Shown here: positions 3,319 through 33,566 of the stretch, piece by piece | How positions within the stretch are numbered: position 1 is the stretch's first letter | Layout: each line of letters begins with the position of its first letter | Source of the DNA: a virus | Strand: one strand, 5' to 3' | UHGV virus genome: UHGV-0097760 | Length of the DNA stretch: 35,200 bases | Program-made: the position numbers and the translations under genes | Notes under the pieces: generated by a model | Database searches by the model: none | Told to the model about the DNA's origin: nothing | What the model saw: the letters and a program-made list of their open reading frames with translations, nothing else

Positions 3319-3590
3319 GTATTCGTATTGAAATTGGCGAACGTTATGTCGTTACCAGTGACAGCTTTCAGTTTATTCTTCACGAGAAAAAGAGAGCGGA
3401 AAGCGGTAAAAACGCCGGTCAGGAATGGCTGGCGGTGGTTGGTTATTATCCGAAATTAAGCCAGCTCGTTTCCGGCCTGATGCATCACGATATTCTGACC
3501 GGAAGCGCAAAGTCTTTTGCTGATTTAAACGCGCAGGTTGAGCAACTCAGCAAGCGTTGTTCAGAGGCTTTTGGCTCATATGGCCGTTAA
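3315..3590 (+). CDS. Early hypothetical protein (P2 orf83-like, 91 aa)
   Basis: Synteny and length match. Confidence 0.65.
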   Translation: MSIRIEIGERYVVTSDSFQFILHEKKRAESGKNAGQEWLAVVGYYPKLSQLVSGLMHHDILTGSAKSFADLNAQVEQLSKRCSEAFGSYGR

Positions 3591-5859
3591 AGCCTCCGGG
3601 CATTTTGTCCCTCCGTCAGCATTTGCTGCAGGCACCGGTAAGGCGTTTACCGGTGCTTATGCATGGAACGCGCCACGCGAGGCTGTCGGGCGCGAAAGAC
3701 CCCTTACACGTGACGAGATGCGTCAGGTGCAAGGTGTTTTATCCACGATTAACCGCCTGCCTTACTTTTTGCGCTCGCTGTTTACGTCACGCTATGACTA
3801 CATCCGGCGCAATAAAAGCCCGGTGCACGGGTTTTATTTCCTCACATCCACTTTTCAGCGTCGTTTATGGCCGCGCATTGAGCGTGTGAATCAGCGCCAT
3901 GAAATGAACACCGACGCGTCGATGCTGTTTCTGGCTGAGCGTGACCACTATGCGCGCCTGCCGGGAATGAATGACAAGGAGCTGAAAAAGTTTGCCGCCC
4001 GTATCTCATCGCAGCTTTTCATGATGTATGAGGAACTCAGCGATGCCTGGGTGGATGCGCATGGCGAAAAAGAATCGCTGTTTACGGATGAGGCGCAGGC
4101 TCACCTCTATGGTCATGTTGCTGGCGCTGCACGTGCTTTCAATATTTCCCCTCTCTACTGGAAAAAATACCGTAAAGGACAGATGACCACGAGGCAGGCA
4201 TATTCTGCCATTGCCCGTCTGTTTAACGATGAGTGGTGGATTAGTCAGCTTAAAGGCCAGCGTATGCGCTGGCATGAGGCGTTACTGATTGCTGTCGGGG
4301 AGGTCAATAAAGACCGTTCTCCTTATGCCAGTAAACATGCCATTCGTGATGTGCGTGCACGCCGCCAGGCAAATCTGGAATTTCTAAAATCGTGTGATCT
4401 CGAAAACAGGGAAACAGGCGAGCGCATCGACCTTATCAGTAAGGTGATGGGCAGTATTTCTAATCCTGAAATTCGCCGGATGGAGCTGATGAACACCATT
4501 GCCGGTATTGAGCGTTACGCCGCCGCAGAAGGTGATGTGGGGATGTTTATCACGCTGACCGCGCCGTCAAAGTATCACCCGACACGTCAGGTTGGAAAAG
4601 GCGAAAGTAAAACCGTCCAGCTAAATCACGGCTGGAACGATGAGGCATTTAATCCAAAGGATGCGCAGCGTTATCTCTGCCGTATCTGGAGCCTGATGCG
4701 CACGGCATTCAAGGATAATGATTTACAGGTCTACGGTTTGCGAGTCGTCGAGCCACACCACGACGGAACGCCGCACTGGCATATGATGCTTTTTTGTAAT
4801 CCACGCCAGCGTAACCAGATTATCGAAATCATGCGTCGCTACGCGCTCAAAGAGGATGGCGACGAAAGAGGAGCTGCGCGAAACCGTTTTCAGGCAAAAC
4901 ATCTTAATCGGGGCGGTGCTGCGGGGTATATCGCGAAATACATCTCAAAAAATATCGACGGCTATGCACTGGATGGGCAGCTCGATAACGATACCGGCAG
5001 ACCGCTGAAAGATACTGCCGCGGCTGTTACCGCATGGGCGTCAACGTGGCGCATTCCGCAATTTAAAACGGTTGGCCTGCCGACAATGGGGGCTTACCGT
5101 GAACTACGCAAATTGCCTCGCGGCGTCAGCATTGCTGATGAGTTTGACGAGCGCGTCGAGGCTGCACGCGCCGCCGCAGACAGTGGTGATTTTGCGCTGT
5201 ATATCAGCGCGCAGGGTGGGGCAAATGTCCCGCGCGATTGTCAGACTGTCAGGGTCGCCCGTAGTCCGTCGGATGAAGTTAACGAGTACGAGGAAGAAGT
5301 CGAGAGAGTGGTCGGCATTTACGCGCCGCATCTCGGCGCGCGTCATATTCATATCACCAGAACGACGGACTGGCGCATTGTTCCGAAAGTGCCGGTCGTT
5401 GAGCCTTTGACTTTAAAAAGCGGCATCGCCGCGCCTCGGAGTCCTGTCAATAACTGTGGAAAGCTCACCGGCGGTAATACTTCGTTACCGGCTCCCACGC
5501 CTTCTGAACACGCCGCAGCCGTGCTTAATCTGGCTGATGACGGTGTTATCGAATGGAATGACCCGGATGTCGTGAGGGCGCTCAGGGGCGCATTAAAACA
5601 CGGGCTGAGAACGCCAAATCGTCAACAAAGAAACGGAAGCCCGTTAAAACCGCATGAAATTGCACCATCGGCCAGACTGAGCCGGTCTGAACGATTGCAA
5701 ATCACCCGTATCCGCGTTGACCTTGCTCAGAACGGTATCAGGCCGCAGCGATGGGAGCTTGAGGCGCTGGCGCGTGGCGCGACCGTAAATTATGACGGGA
5801 AAAAATTCACGTATCCGGTCGCTGATGAGTGGCCGGGATTCTGGCATCAATTTGAGTAA
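3580..5859 (+). CDS. A: Replication initiation endonuclease A (rolling-circle initiator); start set at ATG 3580, the ORF-track start at 3538 is a TTG extension
   Basis: 759-aa ORF in A position; HUH-like motif context HHDGTPHWHMMLF and catalytic-Tyr region YIAKYISKN. Confidence 0.85.
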   Translation: MAVKASGHFVPPSAFAAGTGKAFTGAYAWNAPREAVGRERPLTRDEMRQVQGVLSTINRLPYFLRSLFTSRYDYIRRNKSPVHGFYFLTSTFQRRLWPRIERVNQRHEMNTDASMLFLAERDHYARLPGMNDKELKKFAARISSQLFMMYEELSDAWVDAHGEKESLFTDEAQAHLYGHVAGAARAFNISPLYWKKYRKGQMTTRQAYSAIARLFNDEWWISQLKGQRMRWHEALLIAVGEVNKDRSPYASKHAIRDVRARRQANLEFLKSCDLENRETGERIDLISKVMGSISNPEIRRMELMNTIAGIERYAAAEGDVGMFITLTAPSKYHPTRQVGKGESKTVQLNHGWNDEAFNPKDAQRYLCRIWSLMRTAFKDNDLQVYGLRVVEPHHDGTPHWHMMLFCNPRQRNQIIEIMRRYALKEDGDERGAARNRFQAKHLNRGGAAGYIAKYISKNIDGYALDGQLDNDTGRPLKDTAAAVTAWASTWRIPQFKTVGLPTMGAYRELRKLPRGVSIADEFDERVEAARAAADSGDFALYISAQGGANVPRDCQTVRVARSPSDEVNEYEEEVERVVGIYAPHLGARHIHITRTTDWRIVPKVPVVEPLTLKSGIAAPRSPVNNCGKLTGGNTSLPAPTPSEHAAAVLNLADDGVIEWNDPDVVRALRGALKHGLRTPNRQQRNGSPLKPHEIAPSARLSRSERLQITRIRVDLAQNGIRPQRWELEALARGATVNYDGKKFTYPVADEWPGFWHQFE

Positions 5860-5888: not shown

Positions 5889-5958
5889 TTGACTGTAATT
5901 GATTGTTTTTTATATGGTTGCATGCATTAAATCTACGTCAATATCATTATGTTATAAT
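5889..5958 (+). promoter_or_regulatory. Candidate sigma70 promoter(s) for the cargo-locus-1 operon
   Basis: TTGACT (5889-5894) followed 16 nt later by TATATG; and extended -10 TGTTATAAT (5950-5958) about 30 nt upstream of the ATG at 5987. Confidence 0.35.
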
Positions 5959-5986
5959 GCATTACTTAAAAATGTTGGAGACAAAA

Positions 5987-6178
5987 ATGTTAAAGCCTGC
6001 AGATGTTGTTTGTTTGAAAAGCGGTGGATTTAAAATGACTGTATCTGACTCTACTGAGACTCATGCTAAATGTATTTGGCATGATAAAGAAGGAGTTTTG
6101 CACGAGGAGTCATTCTCCATTGATTTACTGGAAATAGCAGAGAGTAAAAGTGGTATGCTGTGTCGTCCACGTAAGTGA
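5987..6178 (+). CDS. Small DUF2158/YodC-like protein (P2 orf91 position); the alternative TTG start at 5903 would give 91 aa
   Basis: DVVCLKSGGFKMTV motif typical of YodC/DUF2158 small proteins; GGAG RBS at 5977-5980. Confidence 0.6.
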   Translation: MLKPADVVCLKSGGFKMTVSDSTETHAKCIWHDKEGVLHEESFSIDLLEIAESKSGMLCRPRK

Positions 6179-6205
6179 ATCACAATAAAATTCACGGGGG
6201 AAAGT

Positions 6206-6886
6206 ATGAAACAATACAGCGAATTAGAAAACAATGTTAAGAGATTCATTGTTGAGCATGAAAAAGGGATTTCTATTGATGATATTCATCATAAGTTCCG
6301 GATGAAGGATGGTCAGAATCGCAAGATGGCAGATTATCTTATTGATAATAAAAAGATAATTTTGGAGATGAAAAGTCTTTTTTCTGACAGGGTCAAGAAT
6401 GTCAATGATAAATTGAATGAGTTGGTTAAAACTGATAGTTGGCTTGCAAAAAACTGGCATGGTGCTATTCATTTAGAAGAGTTGATAAAAAGACACCCAG
6501 ACTCAAAGCGATTTAGAAATGATATAATGAACTTTGCTTATGAAAATATTAAAACAAAGGTAGTTAAAGAAGCTAATAAGCAAATAAATGCAACAAAGGA
6601 TGTTTTGGATTTAAATGACTCGATTGGCGGATTGATTTTGTTAAATGATAATGTCTTTTCACATGAGTTTAATTATTTGTCAGATGAAATATTATATTTG
6701 CTAGGCACAAAGAGATATTCGAGTGTTGAGTTTGTGGTTTATATTGCAAAATTGATTGATAAACAGGTTGATGTTTGTGTGCTACTTGACAGTCAATCTA
6801 AAAATAAAAATTATATTGAATGGTATATGAATAATGTTTTTTTGTTGAACTGGGCGTCTTTTAATAAATATGCAATAAAGATGTAG
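6206..6886 (+). CDS. Hypothetical protein, 226 aa, AT-rich cargo gene at the P2 tin position; function unknown
   Basis: Clean ORF with RBS GGGGGA upstream, 27 nt after the DUF2158 gene; no motif recognised by eye. Confidence 0.6.
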   Translation: MKQYSELENNVKRFIVEHEKGISIDDIHHKFRMKDGQNRKMADYLIDNKKIILEMKSLFSDRVKNVNDKLNELVKTDSWLAKNWHGAIHLEELIKRHPDSKRFRNDIMNFAYENIKTKVVKEANKQINATKDVLDLNDSIGGLILLNDNVFSHEFNYLSDEILYLLGTKRYSSVEFVVYIAKLIDKQVDVCVLLDSQSKNKNYIEWYMNNVFLLNWASFNKYAIKM

Positions 6887-6980
6887 TGGTGTGGATGGAT
6901 ATGAAATGAGTCAACCAAGATGCACCTTGGTCAGTAATCTCATGTGAGATACCACATATAACACCAAAAGTGTCAGGTTG

Positions 6981-7133
6981 ATGGCCATTGTTCACCGTTT
7001 ACAGCAGATTATGGTCAACGAAAATCTGACGCCCGATGAGCTAGTCGGGTGTGCCGAAATAGTCAGGGATAATTACGAACAGCTTAACTATATCGGTCAG
7101 TCCAGCCTTGCGCCGCCACCACGCAGACGATAG
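6981..7133 (+). CDS. Short ORF (50 aa from ATG), possibly a gene remnant, ending 4 nt before a hairpin
   Basis: Below the ORF-track cut-off; found by manual translation; GC content higher than the flanking cargo. Confidence 0.25.
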   Translation: MAIVHRLQQIMVNENLTPDELVGCAEIVRDNYEQLNYIGQSSLAPPPRRR

Positions 7134-7137
7134 AGAA

Positions 7138-7176
7138 CCCCGCCAGCAATGAAACATGTTTTCAGTGCTGGCGGGG
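7138..7176. terminator. Hairpin between convergent genes (11-bp perfect stem CCCCGCCAGCA / TGCTGGCGGGG)
   Basis: Perfect inverted repeat with 17-nt loop; weak T-tract, so bidirectional terminator function is inferred. Confidence 0.5.
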
Positions 7177-7206
7177 TTGAACAACGAACGAAGTGAGGCG
7201 TTAGCA

Positions 7207-8148
7207 TTAAGTTAATTTTAATGAATGGTACTCTCGTGAGTTGACCGAAGATTTGAGATAACCGCAATCATTAACCGACAGTATTGCCGCTAATAGGCGA
7301 CAAACGAGTTTCTGCATTTGCAGTAATATATCGTTACCATATTGATTGTTGTTAACACTGGAAAAACCAAGTGGTTGGCCAAAAAAAATAGCCTCATGAA
7401 AATTATCATTGCGGATGCCAGAAATGTTTTTTTTGCCTGATACCCATGTGGGGATTGATAACCCATAAATTCTGCACATCCACTTTAATCGCTTGGAATG
7501 ATTTGGCTGGGTTTTATCAGGAGCCTTGTCATGCTCAGCCCACGATAAAGCAAAGCAACCATCAAGTGCCATGTAAAGGTACTGGAATTTTTCAAAAGGA
7601 AGGTATTGTGGGTTTTGAGATAAGAATAGCGCATGCACCACTGCCGCAATTCTTTTGGGGGAGTGCGCATCCTTTTGTTTGTTAGTTATATAATTAAGAG
7701 CCAGTTCTATGACTTCTTTTTCAGAGCATCCAACGAGAATAAAATCGGTTAACTTAGTGGGCTTGATAGTGGTTGCATCAAGAAAACCAGCGTCAGTGGT
7801 TGTCAATCTTATACCCTTGAAAAAAGAGAGGCACCACACAACAAAGTTGAGAGTTTCTAACGAGGATGTGTTTTTTAATTTTAGTGTGTGCGTTTTGGGC
7901 ATGCCGAATACTCGGTAACTATAAGGCATTGTGCATGAGTCACCATTAAGGTTATATACCTTTCGATTCCCAGGGTATATCCAACCATTAACAACGTTTT
8001 TATCATTGTTAATACGTTCCACTTTCTCAATAAGACCGGGTAAAGTACGCAAAGAAAATTGTTCAGTCTCAATGTTAACTTCTACTGGATAGTATCCAAA
8101 CTCCGAAATAATCTCATTTGGTTGCTGTTCGTCAACTTCGCCTTGCAT
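7207..8148 (-). CDS. Hypothetical protein, 313 aa, AT-rich cargo gene adjacent to cos; possible HEPN-type (RNxxxH) nuclease motif
   Basis: Minus-strand ORF; motif GIRNDNFHEA near C-terminus matches the Rx4H HEPN signature; otherwise unrecognised. Confidence 0.6.
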   Translation of the reverse strand: MQGEVDEQQPNEIISEFGYYPVEVNIETEQFSLRTLPGLIEKVERINNDKNVVNGWIYPGNRKVYNLNGDSCTMPYSYRVFGMPKTHTLKLKNTSSLETLNFVVWCLSFFKGIRLTTTDAGFLDATTIKPTKLTDFILVGCSEKEVIELALNYITNKQKDAHSPKRIAAVVHALFLSQNPQYLPFEKFQYLYMALDGCFALSWAEHDKAPDKTQPNHSKRLKWMCRIYGLSIPTWVSGKKNISGIRNDNFHEAIFFGQPLGFSSVNNNQYGNDILLQMQKLVCRLLAAILSVNDCGYLKSSVNSREYHSLKLT

Positions 8149-8384
8149 AACTTTCTCCGTTCAAAAACAGGCACGATAATTCTCGTAAGCCTATCATGTT
8201 CGCAAAGTATCCATACCTGTGGATTTTGTAAATTTAAGTTGGTTTGTCATTAAATAAGCCGTTGCATGCAACAAGTGAATGTTTTTGCATGCGTCGGGGA
8301 TGTCCGTTCAGGCTGCGTGCGGTCAGGACTGGTGCGGATCCATAGTATCTATGCAACTGCATTAAAACCGCCCCATGAAGCGGG

Positions 8385-8403
8385 CGGGCGAGGCGGGGAA
8401 AGC
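8385..8403. other. cos site (P2-type 19-nt cohesive end GGCGAGGCGGGGAAAGCAC)
   Basis: Exact match to the P2 cohesive-end sequence as I recall it, in the expected position upstream of the portal gene Q. Confidence 0.75.
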
Positions 8404-8574
8404 ACTGCGCGCTGGCGGTGGTGCTGATTTTATTTTTTCAGCGTCTGAGCGCGTCGTGAAGGCGTTTACTTGGCCTGCTGGGGCGTTGGTGTGTCTGCGG
8501 GATTTTTTGTGCGGTGATGAGCGTGTGAGGGCGTGATGACGGGGTGTAAAAAAGCCGCCCGCAGGCGGCGATGT

Positions 8575-9609
8575 TCAGCCGTTGTCAGTGTCCAGTGAGT
8601 AGTTTTTAAAGCGGATGACCTCCTGACCGAGCCAGCCGTTTATTTCCCGAATCCTGTCCTGTAACGGGATAAGCTCATTGCGGACAAAGACCTTTGCCAC
8701 TTTCTCAATATCACCCAGCGACCCGACGTTCTCCGGCTTGCCGCCCATCAACTGAAAGGGGATGCGGTGCGCGTCCAGCAGGTCAGCGGCGCTGGCTTTT
8801 TTGATATTAAAAAAATCGTCCTTCGTCGCCACTTCACTGAGCGGGATAATTTTAATGCCGTCGGCTTTCCCCTGTGGTGCATAGAGAAACAGATTTTTAA
8901 AGTTGTTGCGGCCTTTCGACTTCACCATGTTTTCGCGGAGCATTTCGATATCGTTGCGATCCTGCACGGCATCAGTGACGTACATGATGTATCCGGCATG
9001 TGCGCCGTTTTCGTAATACTTGCGGCGGAACAGCGTGGCCGACTCATTCAGCCAGGCAGAGTTAAGGGCGCTGAGATATTCCGGCAGGCCGTACAGCTCC
9101 TGATTAATATCCGGCTCCAGCAGGTGAAACACGGAGCCGGGCGTGAAAGGTGTCGGCTCGTTGAAGGACGGCACCCACCAGTAAACATCCTCCTCCACAC
9201 CACGGCGGGTATATTTTGCCGGTGAGGTTTCCAGTCTGATGACCTTACCGGTGGTGCTGTATCGCTTTTCCAGAAACGCATTACCGAACACCAGAAAATC
9301 CAGCACAAAGCGGCTGAAATCCTGCTGGGAAAGCCACGGATGCGGGATAAATGTCGAGGCCAGAATATTACGTTTGACGTAAATCGGTGAGCTGTGATGC
9401 ACGGCAGCACGCAGGCTTTTTGCCAGACCGGTAAAGCTGACCGGTGGCTCATACCATCTGCCGTTACTGATGCACTCGACGTAATCCAGAATGTCACGGC
9501 GGTCGAGTACCGGCACCGGCTCACCAAAGGTGAATGCCTCCATTTTCGGGGCGCTGGCGGTCATTTTTTTTGCCGCAGGTTGCGGTGTTTTCCCTTTTTT
9601 CTTGCTCAT
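8575..9609 (-). CDS. Q: Portal protein Q (344 aa)
   Basis: Length and synteny identical to P2 Q; adjacent to cos. Confidence 0.9.
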   Translation of the reverse strand: MSKKKGKTPQPAAKKMTASAPKMEAFTFGEPVPVLDRRDILDYVECISNGRWYEPPVSFTGLAKSLRAAVHHSSPIYVKRNILASTFIPHPWLSQQDFSRFVLDFLVFGNAFLEKRYSTTGKVIRLETSPAKYTRRGVEEDVYWWVPSFNEPTPFTPGSVFHLLEPDINQELYGLPEYLSALNSAWLNESATLFRRKYYENGAHAGYIMYVTDAVQDRNDIEMLRENMVKSKGRNNFKNLFLYAPQGKADGIKIIPLSEVATKDDFFNIKKASAADLLDAHRIPFQLMGGKPENVGSLGDIEKVAKVFVRNELIPLQDRIREINGWLGQEVIRFKNYSLDTDNG

Positions 9610-11381
9610 CAGTAAAACTCCAGAATGGTGGATGTCAGCGGGGTGCTTATACCGGCGGTGAGTGGCTCATTTAACAGGGCGTGCATGGTCGCCCAGGCGA
9701 GGTCGGCGTGGCTGGCTTCCTCGCTGCGGCTGGCCTCATAGGTGGCACTGCGTCCGCTGCTGGTCATGGTCTTGCGGATAGCCATAAACGAGCTGGTGAT
9801 GTCGGTGGCGCTGACGTCATATTCCAGACAGCCACGGCGGATAACGTCTTTTGCCTTGAGCACCATTGCGGTTTTCATTTCCGGCGTGTAGCGGATATCG
9901 CGCGCGGCGGGATAGAACGAGCGCACGAGCTGGAACACGCCGACACCGAGGCCGGTGGCATCAATACCGATGTATTCGACGTTATATTTTTCGGTGAGTT
10001 TGCGGATGGATTCAGCCTGAGTGGCAAAGTCCATGCCTTTCCACTGGTGACGCTCAAGTATTCTGAATTTGCCACCGGCCACCACCGGCGGTGCCAGTAC
10101 CACGCATCCGGCGCTGTCGCCACGGTGTGACGGGTCGTAACCAATCCATACCGGGCGGGAGCCGAACGGATTCGCGGCAAACGGCGCATAGTCTTCCCAT
10201 TCTTCCAGCGTGTCGACCATGCAGCGTTGCAGCTCCTCGAACGGGAACACCGACGCCTTGTCGTCAACAAATTCACACATGAACAGGTTTTTAAAATCGT
10301 CGGCGCTGTTTTCGCGTTTAAGCTGCTCAATGTCGAACAGCGTGCAGCCACCTTTCAGGGCGTCCTCAATGGTGACAATCTGCCGCCACTGGCCGTCCGC
10401 ACAGAGAAGCCCACCGGCAAGGGCGTTATGACTGACGTCGATTTCCACGCGTTCGGCGGCGCTGGCGCGTCCCCGGTTGAACAGTTCACCCGACCAGAAC
10501 GGGTAGGCGTCGTGCGCCAGCGTGGACGGGGTGGAGAAATAGGTCGAGCGCAGGTGACTCTGTGAGGCCATACCTGATGCCACCTTACGCAGTACCTGAA
10601 AATTCGGGATCCAGAAAATCTCGTCGACGTACAGGTCGCCGTTATGGCTCTGTGCGGTGTTGGAGTTGGTGCCGAGAAAAATAAGTTTTGCGCCGTTATT
10701 GCCCAGGACAATCGGGTCACCGGTCAGGTCAACGTCAACCAGCCGGGCAAAGGCGATGATGTATTCGCGGAACACATACGCCTGCGTTTTACTGGCCGAC
10801 AGAAAAATCTGGTTATGACCGGTTTTCAGGGCGCGCAGCAGCGCCTCGCGGGAAAAATAAAACGTCGCGCCAATCTGGCGGGATTTCAGGATATCGCGGA
10901 TGCGGTGCTCAAGCCCGGCGCGATACCAGTGCAACTGATAGTCGAAAGACTGCTCAAAGAAAATCTGCTCCAGCTTTTCGATGGCCTCGTCACTGAAAAA
11001 ATTCTTTTTCGGTTTGCGCCGCCCGCCTTTGTTGCGGTTAGCGACGTTCGGATTAAGGTCTGCCTCGTTGCCGGTCTGGCTGTAGCGGTTGACCCGTGCC
11101 AGTCGTTCAATCTGGCGTCCCAGCAGGTCAATTTCCTTGAAGTCACTGCCGGTTTTCTGCGGTTTGATGATGAGCTGGGTCAGCCGCGCTTCCAGGCTCA
11201 TTTCGACACGGCTGATGGGGGCAACGCTGTCCCAGCCGTCGCGCTGTTTCCAGCTCTGCACCGTCGGGCGTTTCATCTGCAACATGGCGGCAATCTGCGG
11301 CACGGAAAACCCCTGCCAGTACAGCAGCGCCGCCTGACGACGCGGGTCGTGTAAAAGAGTGGTGTCTGTGGTGATGGTCAT
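9609..11381 (-). CDS. P: Terminase large subunit P (590 aa); start set at ATG 11379-11381
   Basis: 590 aa from MTITTDT...; ATPase/nuclease-sized protein between Q and O; length equals P2 P. Confidence 0.9.
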   Translation of the reverse strand: MTITTDTTLLHDPRRQAALLYWQGFSVPQIAAMLQMKRPTVQSWKQRDGWDSVAPISRVEMSLEARLTQLIIKPQKTGSDFKEIDLLGRQIERLARVNRYSQTGNEADLNPNVANRNKGGRRKPKKNFFSDEAIEKLEQIFFEQSFDYQLHWYRAGLEHRIRDILKSRQIGATFYFSREALLRALKTGHNQIFLSASKTQAYVFREYIIAFARLVDVDLTGDPIVLGNNGAKLIFLGTNSNTAQSHNGDLYVDEIFWIPNFQVLRKVASGMASQSHLRSTYFSTPSTLAHDAYPFWSGELFNRGRASAAERVEIDVSHNALAGGLLCADGQWRQIVTIEDALKGGCTLFDIEQLKRENSADDFKNLFMCEFVDDKASVFPFEELQRCMVDTLEEWEDYAPFAANPFGSRPVWIGYDPSHRGDSAGCVVLAPPVVAGGKFRILERHQWKGMDFATQAESIRKLTEKYNVEYIGIDATGLGVGVFQLVRSFYPAARDIRYTPEMKTAMVLKAKDVIRRGCLEYDVSATDITSSFMAIRKTMTSSGRSATYEASRSEEASHADLAWATMHALLNEPLTAGISTPLTSTILEFY

Positions 11382-11554
11382 GAATACCTCGCCGTGATGA
11401 ATACACGGCAAGGCTACTGAGTCGCGCCCTGCGATTCGCTAAGGTGCTGTTGTGTCAGTGATAAGCCATCCGGGACTGATGGCGGAGGATGCGCATCGTC
11501 GGGAAACTGATGCCGACATGTGACTCCTCTAATCACTATTCAGGACTCCTGACA

Positions 11555-23184: not shown

Positions 23185-23778
23185 TTAGTTAATGCGTGTC
23201 AGCTCGTAATGACCTACTGTTTTACGGCTTGTAAAGTAGTTCCCATTTAACACGTCTTTATCATTAAGATTTAGCTTGAGAATAGCTGTGCCCATGTAAG
23301 GATCTTGTGGACCAAAACCTGCCTTATGCTTGGGGGTTGTTAAAAAAACGTAGTAAAGTTCTGGTCGCCCCGTTTCGGTATCCTTTTTAGGCTTAGCCAC
23401 CAATGTCTGAGAATCGGAGTCGTCAGCTTCGACATCCATTCCAATTTTAAGAAAATCCTGCTTTATAGTTGCTTGTGCGTGGGATGTGCCTTTTTTATCT
23501 TCCCATTCCCAATGAATAACCATATCCCAGGTTCCGTTCAAATCAGGGAAGAGTAGGTTATTTAGTTTAGGGAACCATTGCCATAACTTTCGCCACCCAA
23601 AGAAAAAAATTGATATCACAATAGTATTAAGAATAAACAAACCTCCAGATGCAACTGATAGGACTGTCATGAAAGTTGTGTTTTCATCATATATGCCCAA
23701 TAAAATCAGACCGCAGACAGTCGCATAGATAACGGAGATTCTTGAGATTATTTTCCATATTGGGAGAAGGTTTATCAT
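23185..23778 (-). CDS. Two-TM membrane protein with about 135-aa C-terminal soluble domain; candidate membrane-disrupting effector (Cap15 / S-2TMbeta-like architecture)
   Basis: Two hydrophobic helices (about residues 10-30 and 36-62) then a soluble C-terminal domain; ATGA start/stop overlap with upstream gene. Confidence 0.6.
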   Translation of the reverse strand: MINLLPIWKIISRISVIYATVCGLILLGIYDENTTFMTVLSVASGGLFILNTIVISIFFFGWRKLWQWFPKLNNLLFPDLNGTWDMVIHWEWEDKKGTSHAQATIKQDFLKIGMDVEADDSDSQTLVAKPKKDTETGRPELYYVFLTTPKHKAGFGPQDPYMGTAILKLNLNDKDVLNGNYFTSRKTVGHYELTRIN

Positions 23779-24212
23779 TGCAACTCCTCGTAATAAACTT
23801 CTTTACCAGCCTCAAATATAGAAAGACGACCTCTTTCGCCTACAATCCCTGTAAGTTTAATCTCGTCAATGCAAGAGCCATAAAGGGCAGCAACAAAACG
23901 TCCACCGACGAGTCTTGAACTGTCAAAACTGATGTTCTCTATGATTGGTGGTGAGAAATATTGTGCGGTATAAGTAACATTTCCTGCTTCATCTAAGATG
24001 TGAAAGCCATCATGGTATTCGCTATTTTTATTGGAAATTCTTGATAATAATTCTAATGTGGAATCATTCTGTATGGGGTCTATATTCCGAAGACTTGTGA
24101 TGGGAAGGCTATCAGGGTTATTACATATAATAACGCCTATGCCAGAAAAATAAGCACGACTGGATTTTTTCCAAATATCATATAGTAATTTATATAATTT
24201 CTCTTTTGTCAT
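23775..24212 (-). CDS. 145-aa protein with diadenylate-cyclase-like (DAC/DisA_N-like) motif layout; candidate nucleotide signal generator or sensor
   Basis: YHDGFHIL (DGA-like motif) and, 37 residues later, GGRFVAALYGS in the position of the DAC GTRHRAA motif (RHR degenerate to GRF); RBS GGAAG upstream; AT-rich. Confidence 0.5.
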   Translation of the reverse strand: MTKEKLYKLLYDIWKKSSRAYFSGIGVIICNNPDSLPITSLRNIDPIQNDSTLELLSRISNKNSEYHDGFHILDEAGNVTYTAQYFSPPIIENISFDSSRLVGGRFVAALYGSCIDEIKLTGIVGERGRLSIFEAGKEVYYEELQ

Positions 24213-24743: not shown

Positions 24744-26645
24744 ATGAAGCTAAGAATAAGTAAAATATCATTAAAAAACTTCAAAAGTTTTAAAAATATT
24801 ACTATCGTTCCCAATCCTGATTTTAATATAATCATTGGGGAAAATAGTGCTGGGAAGTCAACTGTTTTTGAAGCTATTCATTTATGGGAGAAATGTTATA
24901 AAACATATATCCTTGCTTCAAGGAAAGGGTTTTATAAAGTTAAGAAGTCAACAAACAGATATGTTAATTATCAAGAGCTGGATTTTTTGCGAATCACAAG
25001 TGATGAGGATCTTTTTCACGACCCAAGAGATCCTAATCTAGGAAAATGCTCTGAAATAACTCTGACATTAAAAAATGAAGAGGAGAATGATAAGAGCTGG
25101 GAGCTTGGATTCAAAGTTACATGCCCAACATCAATCGAAAATGCTTTTTTCCGCGTTCAACCAATAGATGAAAATCAGTTTACTAATTTTGCGGAAGAAT
25201 TTTGTAAAGGAGGGGCATTTTTGGATGAAGCTATCTTTATTTACCAGACGAGACCAGTAGCAGGAGTTCATCAATTTGAGCCGTACTATAATGAGGCTCA
25301 GATTAAGAGAAAAATACAAAAAGGTTATTCACACGAGGTTCTTAGAAACAAAATTATCTCTAAAAGAAAGTCAATATCAGATTTGGAATTAAGCATATCT
25401 GAAATACTTGAGAAAGATGTCAAGTTCAATATTCCTTCGGATGCAAGAAAAAATAAAGATGAATTCATTAAACTTGATGTTTCAATCAATAGTTCAAAAT
25501 ATTATGATCTTCACCTTCAAGGAAGTGGTTTTCTTCAAATTGTGGAAATACTATCTACAGTTGAATTTATTGATGCTCCTCTCAAGTTACTGCTTGTTGA
25601 CGAACCTGACTCACACATCCACACAAAGCTACAACATAATCTTCTCGCCCATTTAAAAAAAATAGATCACAATCAGTTTTTTATTATCAGTCATAACGAT
25701 CAATTTGTGACCAGCGCAGGAGAAGGTGAAGTATTCTTCCTAAACGAAGACGCTAAATTAAGTGGTCACCTAGAAGCAATCAACCCAAATAGTTTCGATA
25801 TTATAAAAAACTCATTGGGGGGGGTAATTTTATCTCTCGAGAGACTTAATAATGCAAAACTAATCGCATTTGTTGAAGGTGAGGACGATGAAAAATATCT
25901 AAAGAAACTTAACCAAAAGATCAAAGAAATTACTAACCCAATTGGTTGTTTGAAAAATGTAGTTTTCTTTCCGTTACGAGGAAAAGATAATATTCTCCAA
26001 AAGGTTGAGTATAATAAGAGAACTTTAAATTCGATTCTAAATGGCAAATCGTGGTATGTTATTTTTGATCGGGATTTTTCTACAGACACTGTTGATCATT
26101 ATCTTAAGGAAAATATTACTAAGAAACGGTTCACTCCATATAGTCATGTGGGGTATTGTATTGAGTCAGTGTTATTTTCGGATCTGAGTATTTTTAAAAA
26201 GTATTTGTATTCCTTGGCTCCATTTATTGCTGAAGACGAATTTTCAACACACATTGATACCTTAATTGATGAATTAAAGGATTCTGTCAATAATTTAACC
26301 TCCTCACTAAACAAAGAAATAGAGGCTAGATTCAATAGTCAAAAGAAAAACCGACCAGAATTTGCTAATCTTAATTTTGTGGATGTCGTTAGATCATGGT
26401 GCGAAGATGGAGTATTCAAACCTGAGCGAGTAATGTCAAAACCTCTTATCCAAAAGTTTGTTACAGATCTGGAAAATAAAATAGGTGTTTCTCTCTTCCT
26501 GCGAGAATCAAATGTAGATGAAGAAGTAGCATCAAAGTTATTATTTAAATACTTTGACTTCATTCAGACAATTGATGATTTGTATCCATCATTTCGAGAC
26601 TTGATGAAACAGCTAGATGTGCTGCCAAGAAATGAAGTTGAATAA
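24744..26645 (+). CDS. OLD-family nuclease: N-terminal ABC-type ATPase plus C-terminal Toprim domain (P2 Old / PARIS AriA-AriB-fusion-like), 633 aa
   Basis: Walker A GENSAGKST, Walker B LLLVDEPDSHIH, H-loop FIISHND; Toprim-like AFVEGEDDEKYL and DxD (VIFDRDFS); RBS GGGAG. Confidence 0.75.
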   Translation: MKLRISKISLKNFKSFKNITIVPNPDFNIIIGENSAGKSTVFEAIHLWEKCYKTYILASRKGFYKVKKSTNRYVNYQELDFLRITSDEDLFHDPRDPNLGKCSEITLTLKNEEENDKSWELGFKVTCPTSIENAFFRVQPIDENQFTNFAEEFCKGGAFLDEAIFIYQTRPVAGVHQFEPYYNEAQIKRKIQKGYSHEVLRNKIISKRKSISDLELSISEILEKDVKFNIPSDARKNKDEFIKLDVSINSSKYYDLHLQGSGFLQIVEILSTVEFIDAPLKLLLVDEPDSHIHTKLQHNLLAHLKKIDHNQFFIISHNDQFVTSAGEGEVFFLNEDAKLSGHLEAINPNSFDIIKNSLGGVILSLERLNNAKLIAFVEGEDDEKYLKKLNQKIKEITNPIGCLKNVVFFPLRGKDNILQKVEYNKRTLNSILNGKSWYVIFDRDFSTDTVDHYLKENITKKRFTPYSHVGYCIESVLFSDLSIFKKYLYSLAPFIAEDEFSTHIDTLIDELKDSVNNLTSSLNKEIEARFNSQKKNRPEFANLNFVDVVRSWCEDGVFKPERVMSKPLIQKFVTDLENKIGVSLFLRESNVDEEVASKLLFKYFDFIQTIDDLYPSFRDLMKQLDVLPRNEVE

Positions 26646-33347: not shown

Positions 33348-33566
33348 ATGTTTCATTGTCCTTTATGCCAGAATGCCGCACATGCGCGTACAAGCCGTTA
33401 TATTACTGACACGACAAAAGAGCGTTATCATCAGTGCCAGAACGTGAATTGCAGCGCCACGTTCATCACTTATGAGTCGGTACAGCGATACATTGTGAAG
33501 CCGGGAGAAGTCCACGCCGTAAGGCCGCACCCGTTGCCGTCAGGACAGCAAATTATGTGGATGTAA
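33348..33566 (+). CDS. ogr: Late gene transcriptional activator Ogr (zinc finger, 72 aa); start set at ATG 33348
   Basis: MFHCPLCQ...CQNVNC Cys4 zinc-finger pattern; 72 aa; last prophage gene before attR. Confidence 0.9.
   Translation: MFHCPLCQNAAHARTSRYITDTTKERYHQCQNVNCSATFITYESVQRYIVKPGEVHAVRPHPLPSGQQIMWM

Follow-up and report, generated by a model that had tools for sequence, protein, structure and literature searches.

The P2 hotspot holds old and tin, which encode phage-exclusion proteins (PMC9122126), together with many validated defences (PMC9122126; PMC9519451). Cargo unrelated to defence, for example a putative partition system, is found in about one quarter of P2 hotspots (PMC9122126); hence, location alone is no proof of defence. 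What, then, is encoded by a gene that occupies this slot as a "hypothetical protein"? The window analyzed here, the 35,200 nucleotides of UHGV virus genome UHGV-0097760, is a P2-like prophage of Escherichia coli. The gene in question, ORF313, spans 7207..8148 on the minus strand and was listed as an open reading frame of 313 aa plus stop with an ATG start. In the initial annotation, it was read as a lone cargo gene with a possible HEPN motif, conceivably of the Abi_2 (AbiD/AbiF-like) type, in a known defence slot.

ORF313 lies between gpA and cos/gpQ. Gene A (gpA, replication endonuclease; 3538-5859, plus strand) is followed by cargo on the same strand, namely a DUF2158 ORF (ORF91; 5903-6178), ORF226 (6206-6886), and a 51-aa ORF (ORF51; 6978-7133), and then by ORF313. 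The cos-proximal edge of the hotspot is marked by cos itself (8387-8405, plus strand), an exact match to the P2 19-nt cohesive end GGCGAGGCGGGGAAAGCAC, for which the chance expectation was 0 matches. Beyond it are Q (portal; 8575-9609) and P (terminase; 9609-11411), both on the minus strand. The distance from the ORF313 start to cos is 239 bp, and the gene reads toward gene A. The A-to-cos interval holds AT-rich cargo, including ORF313, whose GC content is 39.1% vs 53.6% for gene A, 53.0% for Q, and 57.4% for P. These values and the ORF listing agree with the original description of an AT-rich 313-aa ORF next to cos with IRNDNFHE near its C-terminus. The statement that its transcription is unlike that of P2 old had to be reversed. 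Transcription of ORF313, like that of old, leads away from cos; in P2, both old and tin lie on the minus strand as well and have a cos-proximal promoter, with starts at 33424/33426, near cosR (approximately 150 bp; NC_001895 features).

The signals around the gene were also inspected. A GGAG ribosome-binding site, read from the sequence (8155..8158, minus strand), lies 6 nt 5' of the ATG, and a ribosome-binding site is annotated for ORF313 at the equivalent place in AM157369. A consensus scan returned a candidate sigma-70-like promoter, ATGACA-16-CAAAAT (8223..8250, minus strand; 9/12 matches). The upstream stretch that contains it aligned partially to the P2 old promoter region, and, by position, the candidate may correspond to the P2 old-tin promoter. 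The convergent gap between ORF313 and the 51-aa ORF contains a strong hairpin without a classical U-tract (7136..7178; RNA fold -32.9 kcal/mol, z = -6.3), which is likely a two-way transcription stop for both genes.

The P2-EC67 ORF313 was reportedly deposited by Odegrip in 2006. The sequence of the gene in the window is on deposit under that name (AM157369). Its family is catalogued as single-gene P2-hotspot system #11 of 169, with 218 occurrences and no Pfam domain, and ORF226 plus DUF2158 as a separate system, #63 (Rousset 2022, Table S5B). The earlier view of a known defence slot agrees with the position in the P2 hotspot. The family is absent from the tested systems of the same study (Rousset 2022, Table S2). 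A link to its validated system of "three hypothetical proteins" was rejected, as Table S5, and not the table of tested systems, is the only one with the ORF313 and ORF226 peptides. DefensePredictor gives WP_001161722.1 a mean log-odds of 9.68, classes it as a "predicted novel defense gene", and lists no remote homologue for it (Table S10); this protein is a family member at the same slot in strain S65EC. The family is absent from the transcription units screened there (Table S6), and the HEPN system validated in that work, DS-40 (WP_097419291, 311 aa), is unrelated to ORF313 in sequence. A literature search of incomplete coverage found no paper on a HEPN domain, activity, or phenotype of the family, and a published test elsewhere is possible. 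Recurrence as cargo and machine prediction as a defence gene are thus already on record.

The motif was considered first as a string of letters. IRNDNFHE corresponds to residues 245-252 of ORF313. The codons from R246 through N-D-N-F-H251 to E252 occupy 7393..7413 on the minus strand (R246, 7411-7413; H251, 7396-7398) and would specify the HEPN catalytic RNxxxH(E). The general form Rx4-6H arose in 53% of ORF313 shuffles and occurs a second time in the protein (R166-H172), and RNxxxH arose in 1.9% of shuffles. The motif by itself is therefore weak evidence for HEPN. It rises above chance because it is conserved and structurally well placed.

Conservation was assessed in two alignments. Among 33 homologues of 45-87% identity, R246, N247, H251, and E252 were all invariant. 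In a set of 111 sequences reaching down to 25% identity, R246 was retained in 110, H251 in 109, N247 in 105, and E252 in 102, and residues 248-250, between N247 and H251, varied freely. The conservation of the R/H pair, proposed at the outset as a check, was thereby borne out. The only fully invariant positions (111/111) were E186 and G112. In the HEPN superfamily, Rx4-6H lies at the end of helix 3, the residue right after R is polar (N, D, or H), helix 2 carries an acidic residue, and an insert separates helices 2 and 3 (PMC3710099). N247 conforms to the rule for the polar residue. The Ex3[K/R] form of the helix-2 motif is absent in ORF313.

The placement of these residues was examined in predicted structures. 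An initial AlphaFold model from 33 sequences gave little certainty near the motif. The second AF2 model, built from 111 sequences without templates, had a pLDDT of 94.5 and a pTM of 0.92. It consists of a mixed beta/alpha part of approximately residues 10-140 (7729..8121, minus strand) and a helical, HEPN-like part of approximately residues 143-300 (7249..7722, minus strand). The helices of the latter are 143-156, 163-176, 184-206, 217-228, 242-252, and 274-289. We propose, from the model, that 163-176, 184-206, 242-252, and 274-289 are HEPN helices H1 to H4 and that 207-241, with helix 217-228, is an insert. The motif closes the proposed H3, with H251 as its penultimate residue, and the helix-containing insert precedes it, between the assigned H2 and H3. 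E186 (codon 7591..7593, minus strand) lies at the N-terminal end of the assigned H2. HEPN toxins of HepT/MNT toxin-antitoxin pairs were among the best structural matches; a whole-chain Foldseek search against the PDB returned nothing at E<0.4. The model and the structural matches uphold the expectation of an alpha-helical, HEPN-like C-terminal half. The N-terminal domain of about 140 aa is conserved, with near-invariant polar residues at R79, T86, H87 (110/111), R114, D124, and D135 in addition to G112, and neither a structural nor a sequence relative of it was found.

Profile searches were carried out with the query and with the family. The ORF313 query had no match in Pfam, NCBIfam, or PADLOC, with zero PADLOC matches at E<=1, Abi and ApeA models included, and no significant Pfam match was obtained among 33 or 111 homologues. 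The best HEPN Pfam scores of the 111 members were sub-threshold and came from one member each (HEPN_RiboL-PSP, E=0.074; HEPN_Apea, PF18739, E=0.15). In PHROGs, the only match was phrog_5937 (2e-198), a family whose function is unassigned there. A profile search of PDB sequences returned no HEPN chain. It gave only a weak N-terminal lead to bacterial RyR domains (E=0.0047), which was dropped after single-domain E-values of 3.3 and 25 and no backing from Pfam RyR. For hhalign, two reference profiles were built from proteins labelled HEPN_RiboL-PSP and HEPN_Apea by Rousset. The RiboL-PSP-labelled family aligned with P=0.002 and a probability of only 13% over 57 columns, with the RNxxxH motif in register with the invariant RRNLFVH. 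In this alignment, R246-N247...H251 fell on the invariant R192-N193...H197, H217 on the invariant H160, and W235 on a consensus W (W182 in P0284). The HEPN_Apea-labelled family gave no significant alignment (P=0.18), and its best path puts RNxxxH on RSDIxH. Single HEPN sequences gave probabilities of 1-3%, in a setting where the method has little power. Both Rousset-labelled reference families themselves fail hmmscan, so that their HEPN labels were not reproduced; a lack of HMMER matches therefore says little against membership in HEPN. ORF313 is best placed in the HEPN superfamily, in an undescribed family that is neither Abi_2 nor ApeA, and its C-terminal half is likely a catalytic-type HEPN domain. 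The core of the initial reading stands, with two corrections, the family and the placement relative to old.

The family is broad. Homologue searches yielded 390 matches in a 90%-clustered database and, with clustering at 50% identity, 429 representatives from Proteobacteria and other groups. Most full-length members have about 300 aa and aligned over the entire protein. One homologue carries the UniRef name "Apea-like HEPN". Some homologues outside phages adjoin type IIG or type I restriction-modification genes, mad2, HmaA, HEC-05, PDC-S49, or DUF4238, and one shares an integrase island with a TIR-NACHT gene. Others are among housekeeping genes, such as an Aeromonas copy beside an AlkZ-like gene, which counts against a defence role.

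In 41 of the 43 IMG/VR contigs with a relative, the gene is the first after Q and cos, with gene A convergent beyond it. Backbones with 99% identical Q carry ORF313 alleles of 100%, 83%, and 74% identity. The 83% allele is a mosaic, 99% identical in the N-terminal domain and only 40% in the insert 207-241. Across alleles, this insert, the loop 263-273, and the linker 141-162 change fastest and helices 3 and 4 slowest. ORF313 adds a case in which alleles of a putative immune gene were swapped, and recombined within the gene, between otherwise near-identical prophages.

From these results, we consider ORF313 to be probably a single-gene lysogenic-conversion module of the P2 gpA-cos-gpQ hotspot, composed of a sensor and a HEPN abortive-infection RNase. 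The product would have two tightly packed parts, the N-terminal beta/alpha part and the C-terminal HEPN part, the latter with a predicted, intact catalytic constellation made up of the helix-2 residue E186 and, closing helix 3, R246-N247-x3-H251. The lysogen would make the protein from the cos-proximal promoter and hold it inactive. An infecting phage would then give a cue in the form of a phage protein or small molecule, which may be read by the N-terminal domain, the fast-evolving insert 207-241, or both. The HEPN sites, probably formed across a dimer, would cut RNA without metal, the candidate substrates being tRNA anticodon loops or mRNA/rRNA. Translation would halt and the infection would abort. 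This scheme follows the logic documented for ApeA and HepS, and each step from a HEPN fold with an intact motif to an RNase, to its regulation, and to defence is inferred. The N-terminal domain (approximately 10-140) may be named a putative sensor or regulatory domain. That this domain and the recombining insert together form a new type of sensor, acting as an allosteric switch of the HEPN site, is a tentative suggestion. Of all parts of the protein, the N-terminal domain, for which there is no explanation, and the mosaic insert with its fast change most deserve experiment.

A HEPN RNase could also be a toxin that stabilizes the prophage by addiction or post-segregational killing, or that serves competition between elements, with its antitoxin encoded at an unlinked site or replaced by an internal autoinhibitory domain. 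The HEPN evidence is equal for this alternative, which additionally draws on the HepT/MNT toxins among the best structural matches and on the travel of the family on mobile elements. Against it stands the neighbourhood. Clustering of flanking ORFs of at least 70 aa at 77 genomic loci of homologues gave none conserved beyond closely related Sphingopyxis genomes, and the same result was obtained for ORFs of 30-130 aa that lie no more than 500 bp from a gene end. Of the 25 Pfam families met most often in immediate neighbours, none is a nucleotidyltransferase (MNT). In enterobacterial phages, the 51-aa ORF often accompanies ORF313. Its region occurs in 397 E. coli genomes vs 93 for ORF313, which ruled it out as a dedicated partner or antitoxin. 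A lone constitutive toxin without an antitoxin would kill its host, and ORF313 occupies the position of the exclusion gene old, not a maintenance region. We therefore regard a stabilizing or competing toxin as improbable, although the best placed of the alternatives.

Slightly less probable again is that the HEPN domain serves the prophage itself, in RNA processing, in the exclusion of P2-like or P4 relatives, or in the control of lysogeny. The cos-proximal slot is kept by alleles of 100% down to 50% identity across divergent peduovirus backbones, including those whose A protein is only 37% identical, which could mean a phage-specific role; moreover, one P2-hotspot system acts against P2 relatives (PMC9122126). 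Two distributions weigh on the other side. Most family members are outside P2-like phages, in varied chromosomal or island contexts of Proteobacteria and other phyla, and many P2-like phages lack the gene: of 5426 E. coli genomes, 93 carry it, compared with 2173 that have cos-region matches.

The helical domain might instead act as a HEPN-like scaffold, binding a protein or ligand and leaving RNA uncut, as in MtlR or sacsin, in a protein with some other role. The conservation pattern described above makes this unlikely: the acidic residue of helix 2 is near-invariant, as are R, N, and H, while the intervening positions vary, and non-catalytic, decayed HEPN domains lose Rx4-6H wholly or partly (PMC3710099).

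A multi-gene system of ORF313, the DUF2158 ORF91, ORF226, and the 51-aa ORF is, if anything, a shade less likely. All four share the hotspot in the window, the full cargo block (at least 80% coverage) is present in 27 E. coli genomes, and the block also occurs in P2-EC67. ORF226 and ORF91, however, are on the other strand, are beside 0 of the 77 genomic homologues, and accompany ORF313 in only 9 of the 43 viral contigs; together with their separate listing by Rousset, this ruled them out as partners, and the unequal counts of ORF51 and ORF313 in E. coli speak against the 51-aa ORF. Partner genes in P2-like phages vary, comprising DUF2158 with ORF226, an ImmA/IrrE peptidase with a 199-aa protein, an Orf91/ASCH-like protein, or DinI. 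By eye, the 199-aa protein has a membrane-spanning look, and the Orf91/ASCH-like partner was likewise called by eye from sequence. The genomic loci and viral contigs agree with the original view of a lone gene. Membership in Abi_2 (AbiD/AbiF), which an RNxxxH-type HEPN motif in both and the plausibility of abortive-infection genes as cargo here had suggested, is very improbable, given that PF07751 was missed at E<=1 by the query and all 111 homologues, that the PADLOC Abi models were silent on the query, and that the beta-rich N-terminal domain is a different architecture.

The ORF313 family is one of the commoner unannotated cargoes in the P2 defence hotspot of E. coli, with hundreds of distant relatives elsewhere. 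The HEPN assignment, with the named residues E186, R246, N247, and H251, turns a "hypothetical protein" into a testable one-gene defence candidate. If the N-terminal domain and the insert do form a sensor of a new type, ORF313 would define a widespread and new immunity family in which a single protein is both sensor and RNase and recognizes its trigger in an allele-specific manner.

Compared with known systems, ORF313 has the closest positional counterpart in P2 old, which has the same strand, the same slot, and cos-proximal transcription, and both genes are AT-rich lysogenic-conversion cargo. The Old protein is unrelated to ORF313; Old is an ABC-ATPase with a TOPRIM nuclease (bioRxiv 10.64898/2026.07.10.737580). 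Abi_2 (PF07751) proteins resemble ORF313 in being HEPN-superfamily products of single genes in the abortive-infection class, which is putative for ORF313, and differ in that the family model does not match it. HepT/MNT HEPN toxins are minimal HEPN domains of 130-141 residues that an adjacent MNT antitoxin neutralizes, whereas ORF313 has an extra domain and no conserved neighbour. The RiboL-PSP-type HEPN of P4-hotspot system 70 (Rousset 2022) is the best sequence-profile match and shares RNxxxH, but the labelled reference family has about 450-470 aa and other flanking regions than ORF313.

Two single-protein HEPN systems are instructive for the proposed mode of action. HepS of the Gifsy-1 prophage is a single HEPN protein in which a phage tail-tip protein leads to tRNA cutting and abortive infection (PMC13043305). 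It is a 218-residue chain with one HEPN domain, without the N-terminal domain of about 140 aa found in ORF313, and no sequence relationship between the two was detected. The trigger of HepS is a siphovirus tail-tip protein and its assembly is tetrameric. ApeA (Gao et al. 2020) is, like ORF313, a single-gene system in which HEPN is combined with extra N-terminal domains. It has three mainly helical domains, with HEPN at 335-583 in Ec2ApeA, whereas ORF313 has 313 aa and a beta-rich N-terminal domain. Proteins labelled HEPN_Apea are likewise among the cargo of P2 and P4 hotspots (Rousset 2022). In ApeA, a ligand bound in a pocket apart from the catalytic centre leads to cutting of the tRNA anticodon loop (bioRxiv 10.64898/2026.01.26.701840).

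At the sequence level, ORF313, the 313-aa cargo gene beside cos, is a mosaic within the gene. This was noted for two loci (L105 and L120) and concerns an insert between HEPN helices 2 and 3 (residues 207-241; window 7426-7530, minus strand). An allele with 83% identity to that of the window is 99% identical to it in the N-terminal domain, but just 40% in this insert. The 100%, 83%, and 74% alleles of ORF313 occur on near-identical prophage backbones.

Two further features of the ORF313 sequence were noted. The family-profile search returned a weak ryanodine receptor (RyR)-like stretch at residues 4-57 (window 7978-8139, minus strand). Against bacterial RyR domains, the profile matched 6uhi at E=0.0047, with single-domain E-values of at least 3. 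The spacing Y-x-P ... GW-x-Y is common to these residues and to bacterial RyR domains; Pfam RyR gave no backing for the match. A second Rx5H, R166-IAAVV-H172 (residues 166-172; window 7633-7653, minus strand), falls within the proposed HEPN helix 1. Of the 111 aligned sequences of the ORF313 family, 96 keep H172, but fewer than 85% keep R166. This second Rx5H probably plays a structural role instead of forming another active site.

In a P. aeruginosa island (L085), a 73-aa XRE-type HTH gene (6729-6950 of that locus) lies 50 nt upstream of the ORF313 homologue and on the same strand. Among the 103 immediate neighbours of ORF313 homologues scanned, three carry HTH_3. Such an HTH gene may be an occasional local regulator.

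Three cargo genes on the plus strand lie between gene A and ORF313. Of 5426 E. coli genomes, 397 carry the 51-aa ORF (window 6978-7133; phrog_11386), which is frequently convergent to ORF313, yet not specific to it. Its RefSeq name, "meiotically up-regulated 80 protein", is surely spurious. Downstream of gene A, the DUF2158 ORF and ORF226 make up a pair (window 5903-6886) that is independent of ORF313 and corresponds to P2-hotspot system #63, with 67 occurrences (Rousset, 2022). The DUF2158 ORF (Pfam DUF2158 at 1.2e-7) is 91 aa long by our ORF calling and 63 aa in the PGAP annotation (locus L001, 3128-3319), the latter being the form given by Rousset (2022). ORF226 has a GC content of 29.8% and no assigned protein family; it belongs to phrog_20483, a PHROG that carries no functional annotation.

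The second AT-rich island (window 23185-24212, minus strand) occupies the P2 Z/fun slot, with the gene for tail-fibre assembly on one side and the sheath gene on the other. One of its products is a 197-aa Cap15-like 2TM effector, which contains a cyclic-dinucleotide receptor domain (PF18153 at 8e-20; PADLOC "Effector 2TM" at 3e-31). The 145-aa ORF immediately upstream matches PF02457 (DisA-type diadenylate cyclase) at a sub-threshold 3.6e-5. The two genes might together constitute a minimal signalling defence that pairs a cyclase with Cap15. In the second hotspot, window 24744-26645 (plus strand) encodes a 633-aa protein in which an ABC-type ATPase, with matches to AAA_15/21/23 and SMC_N, is fused to DUF4435 (2e-6). 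It matched the PADLOC models NsnB, mad3, AriAB, PtuA, and GajA, and it appears to be an OLD/PARIS-type single protein.
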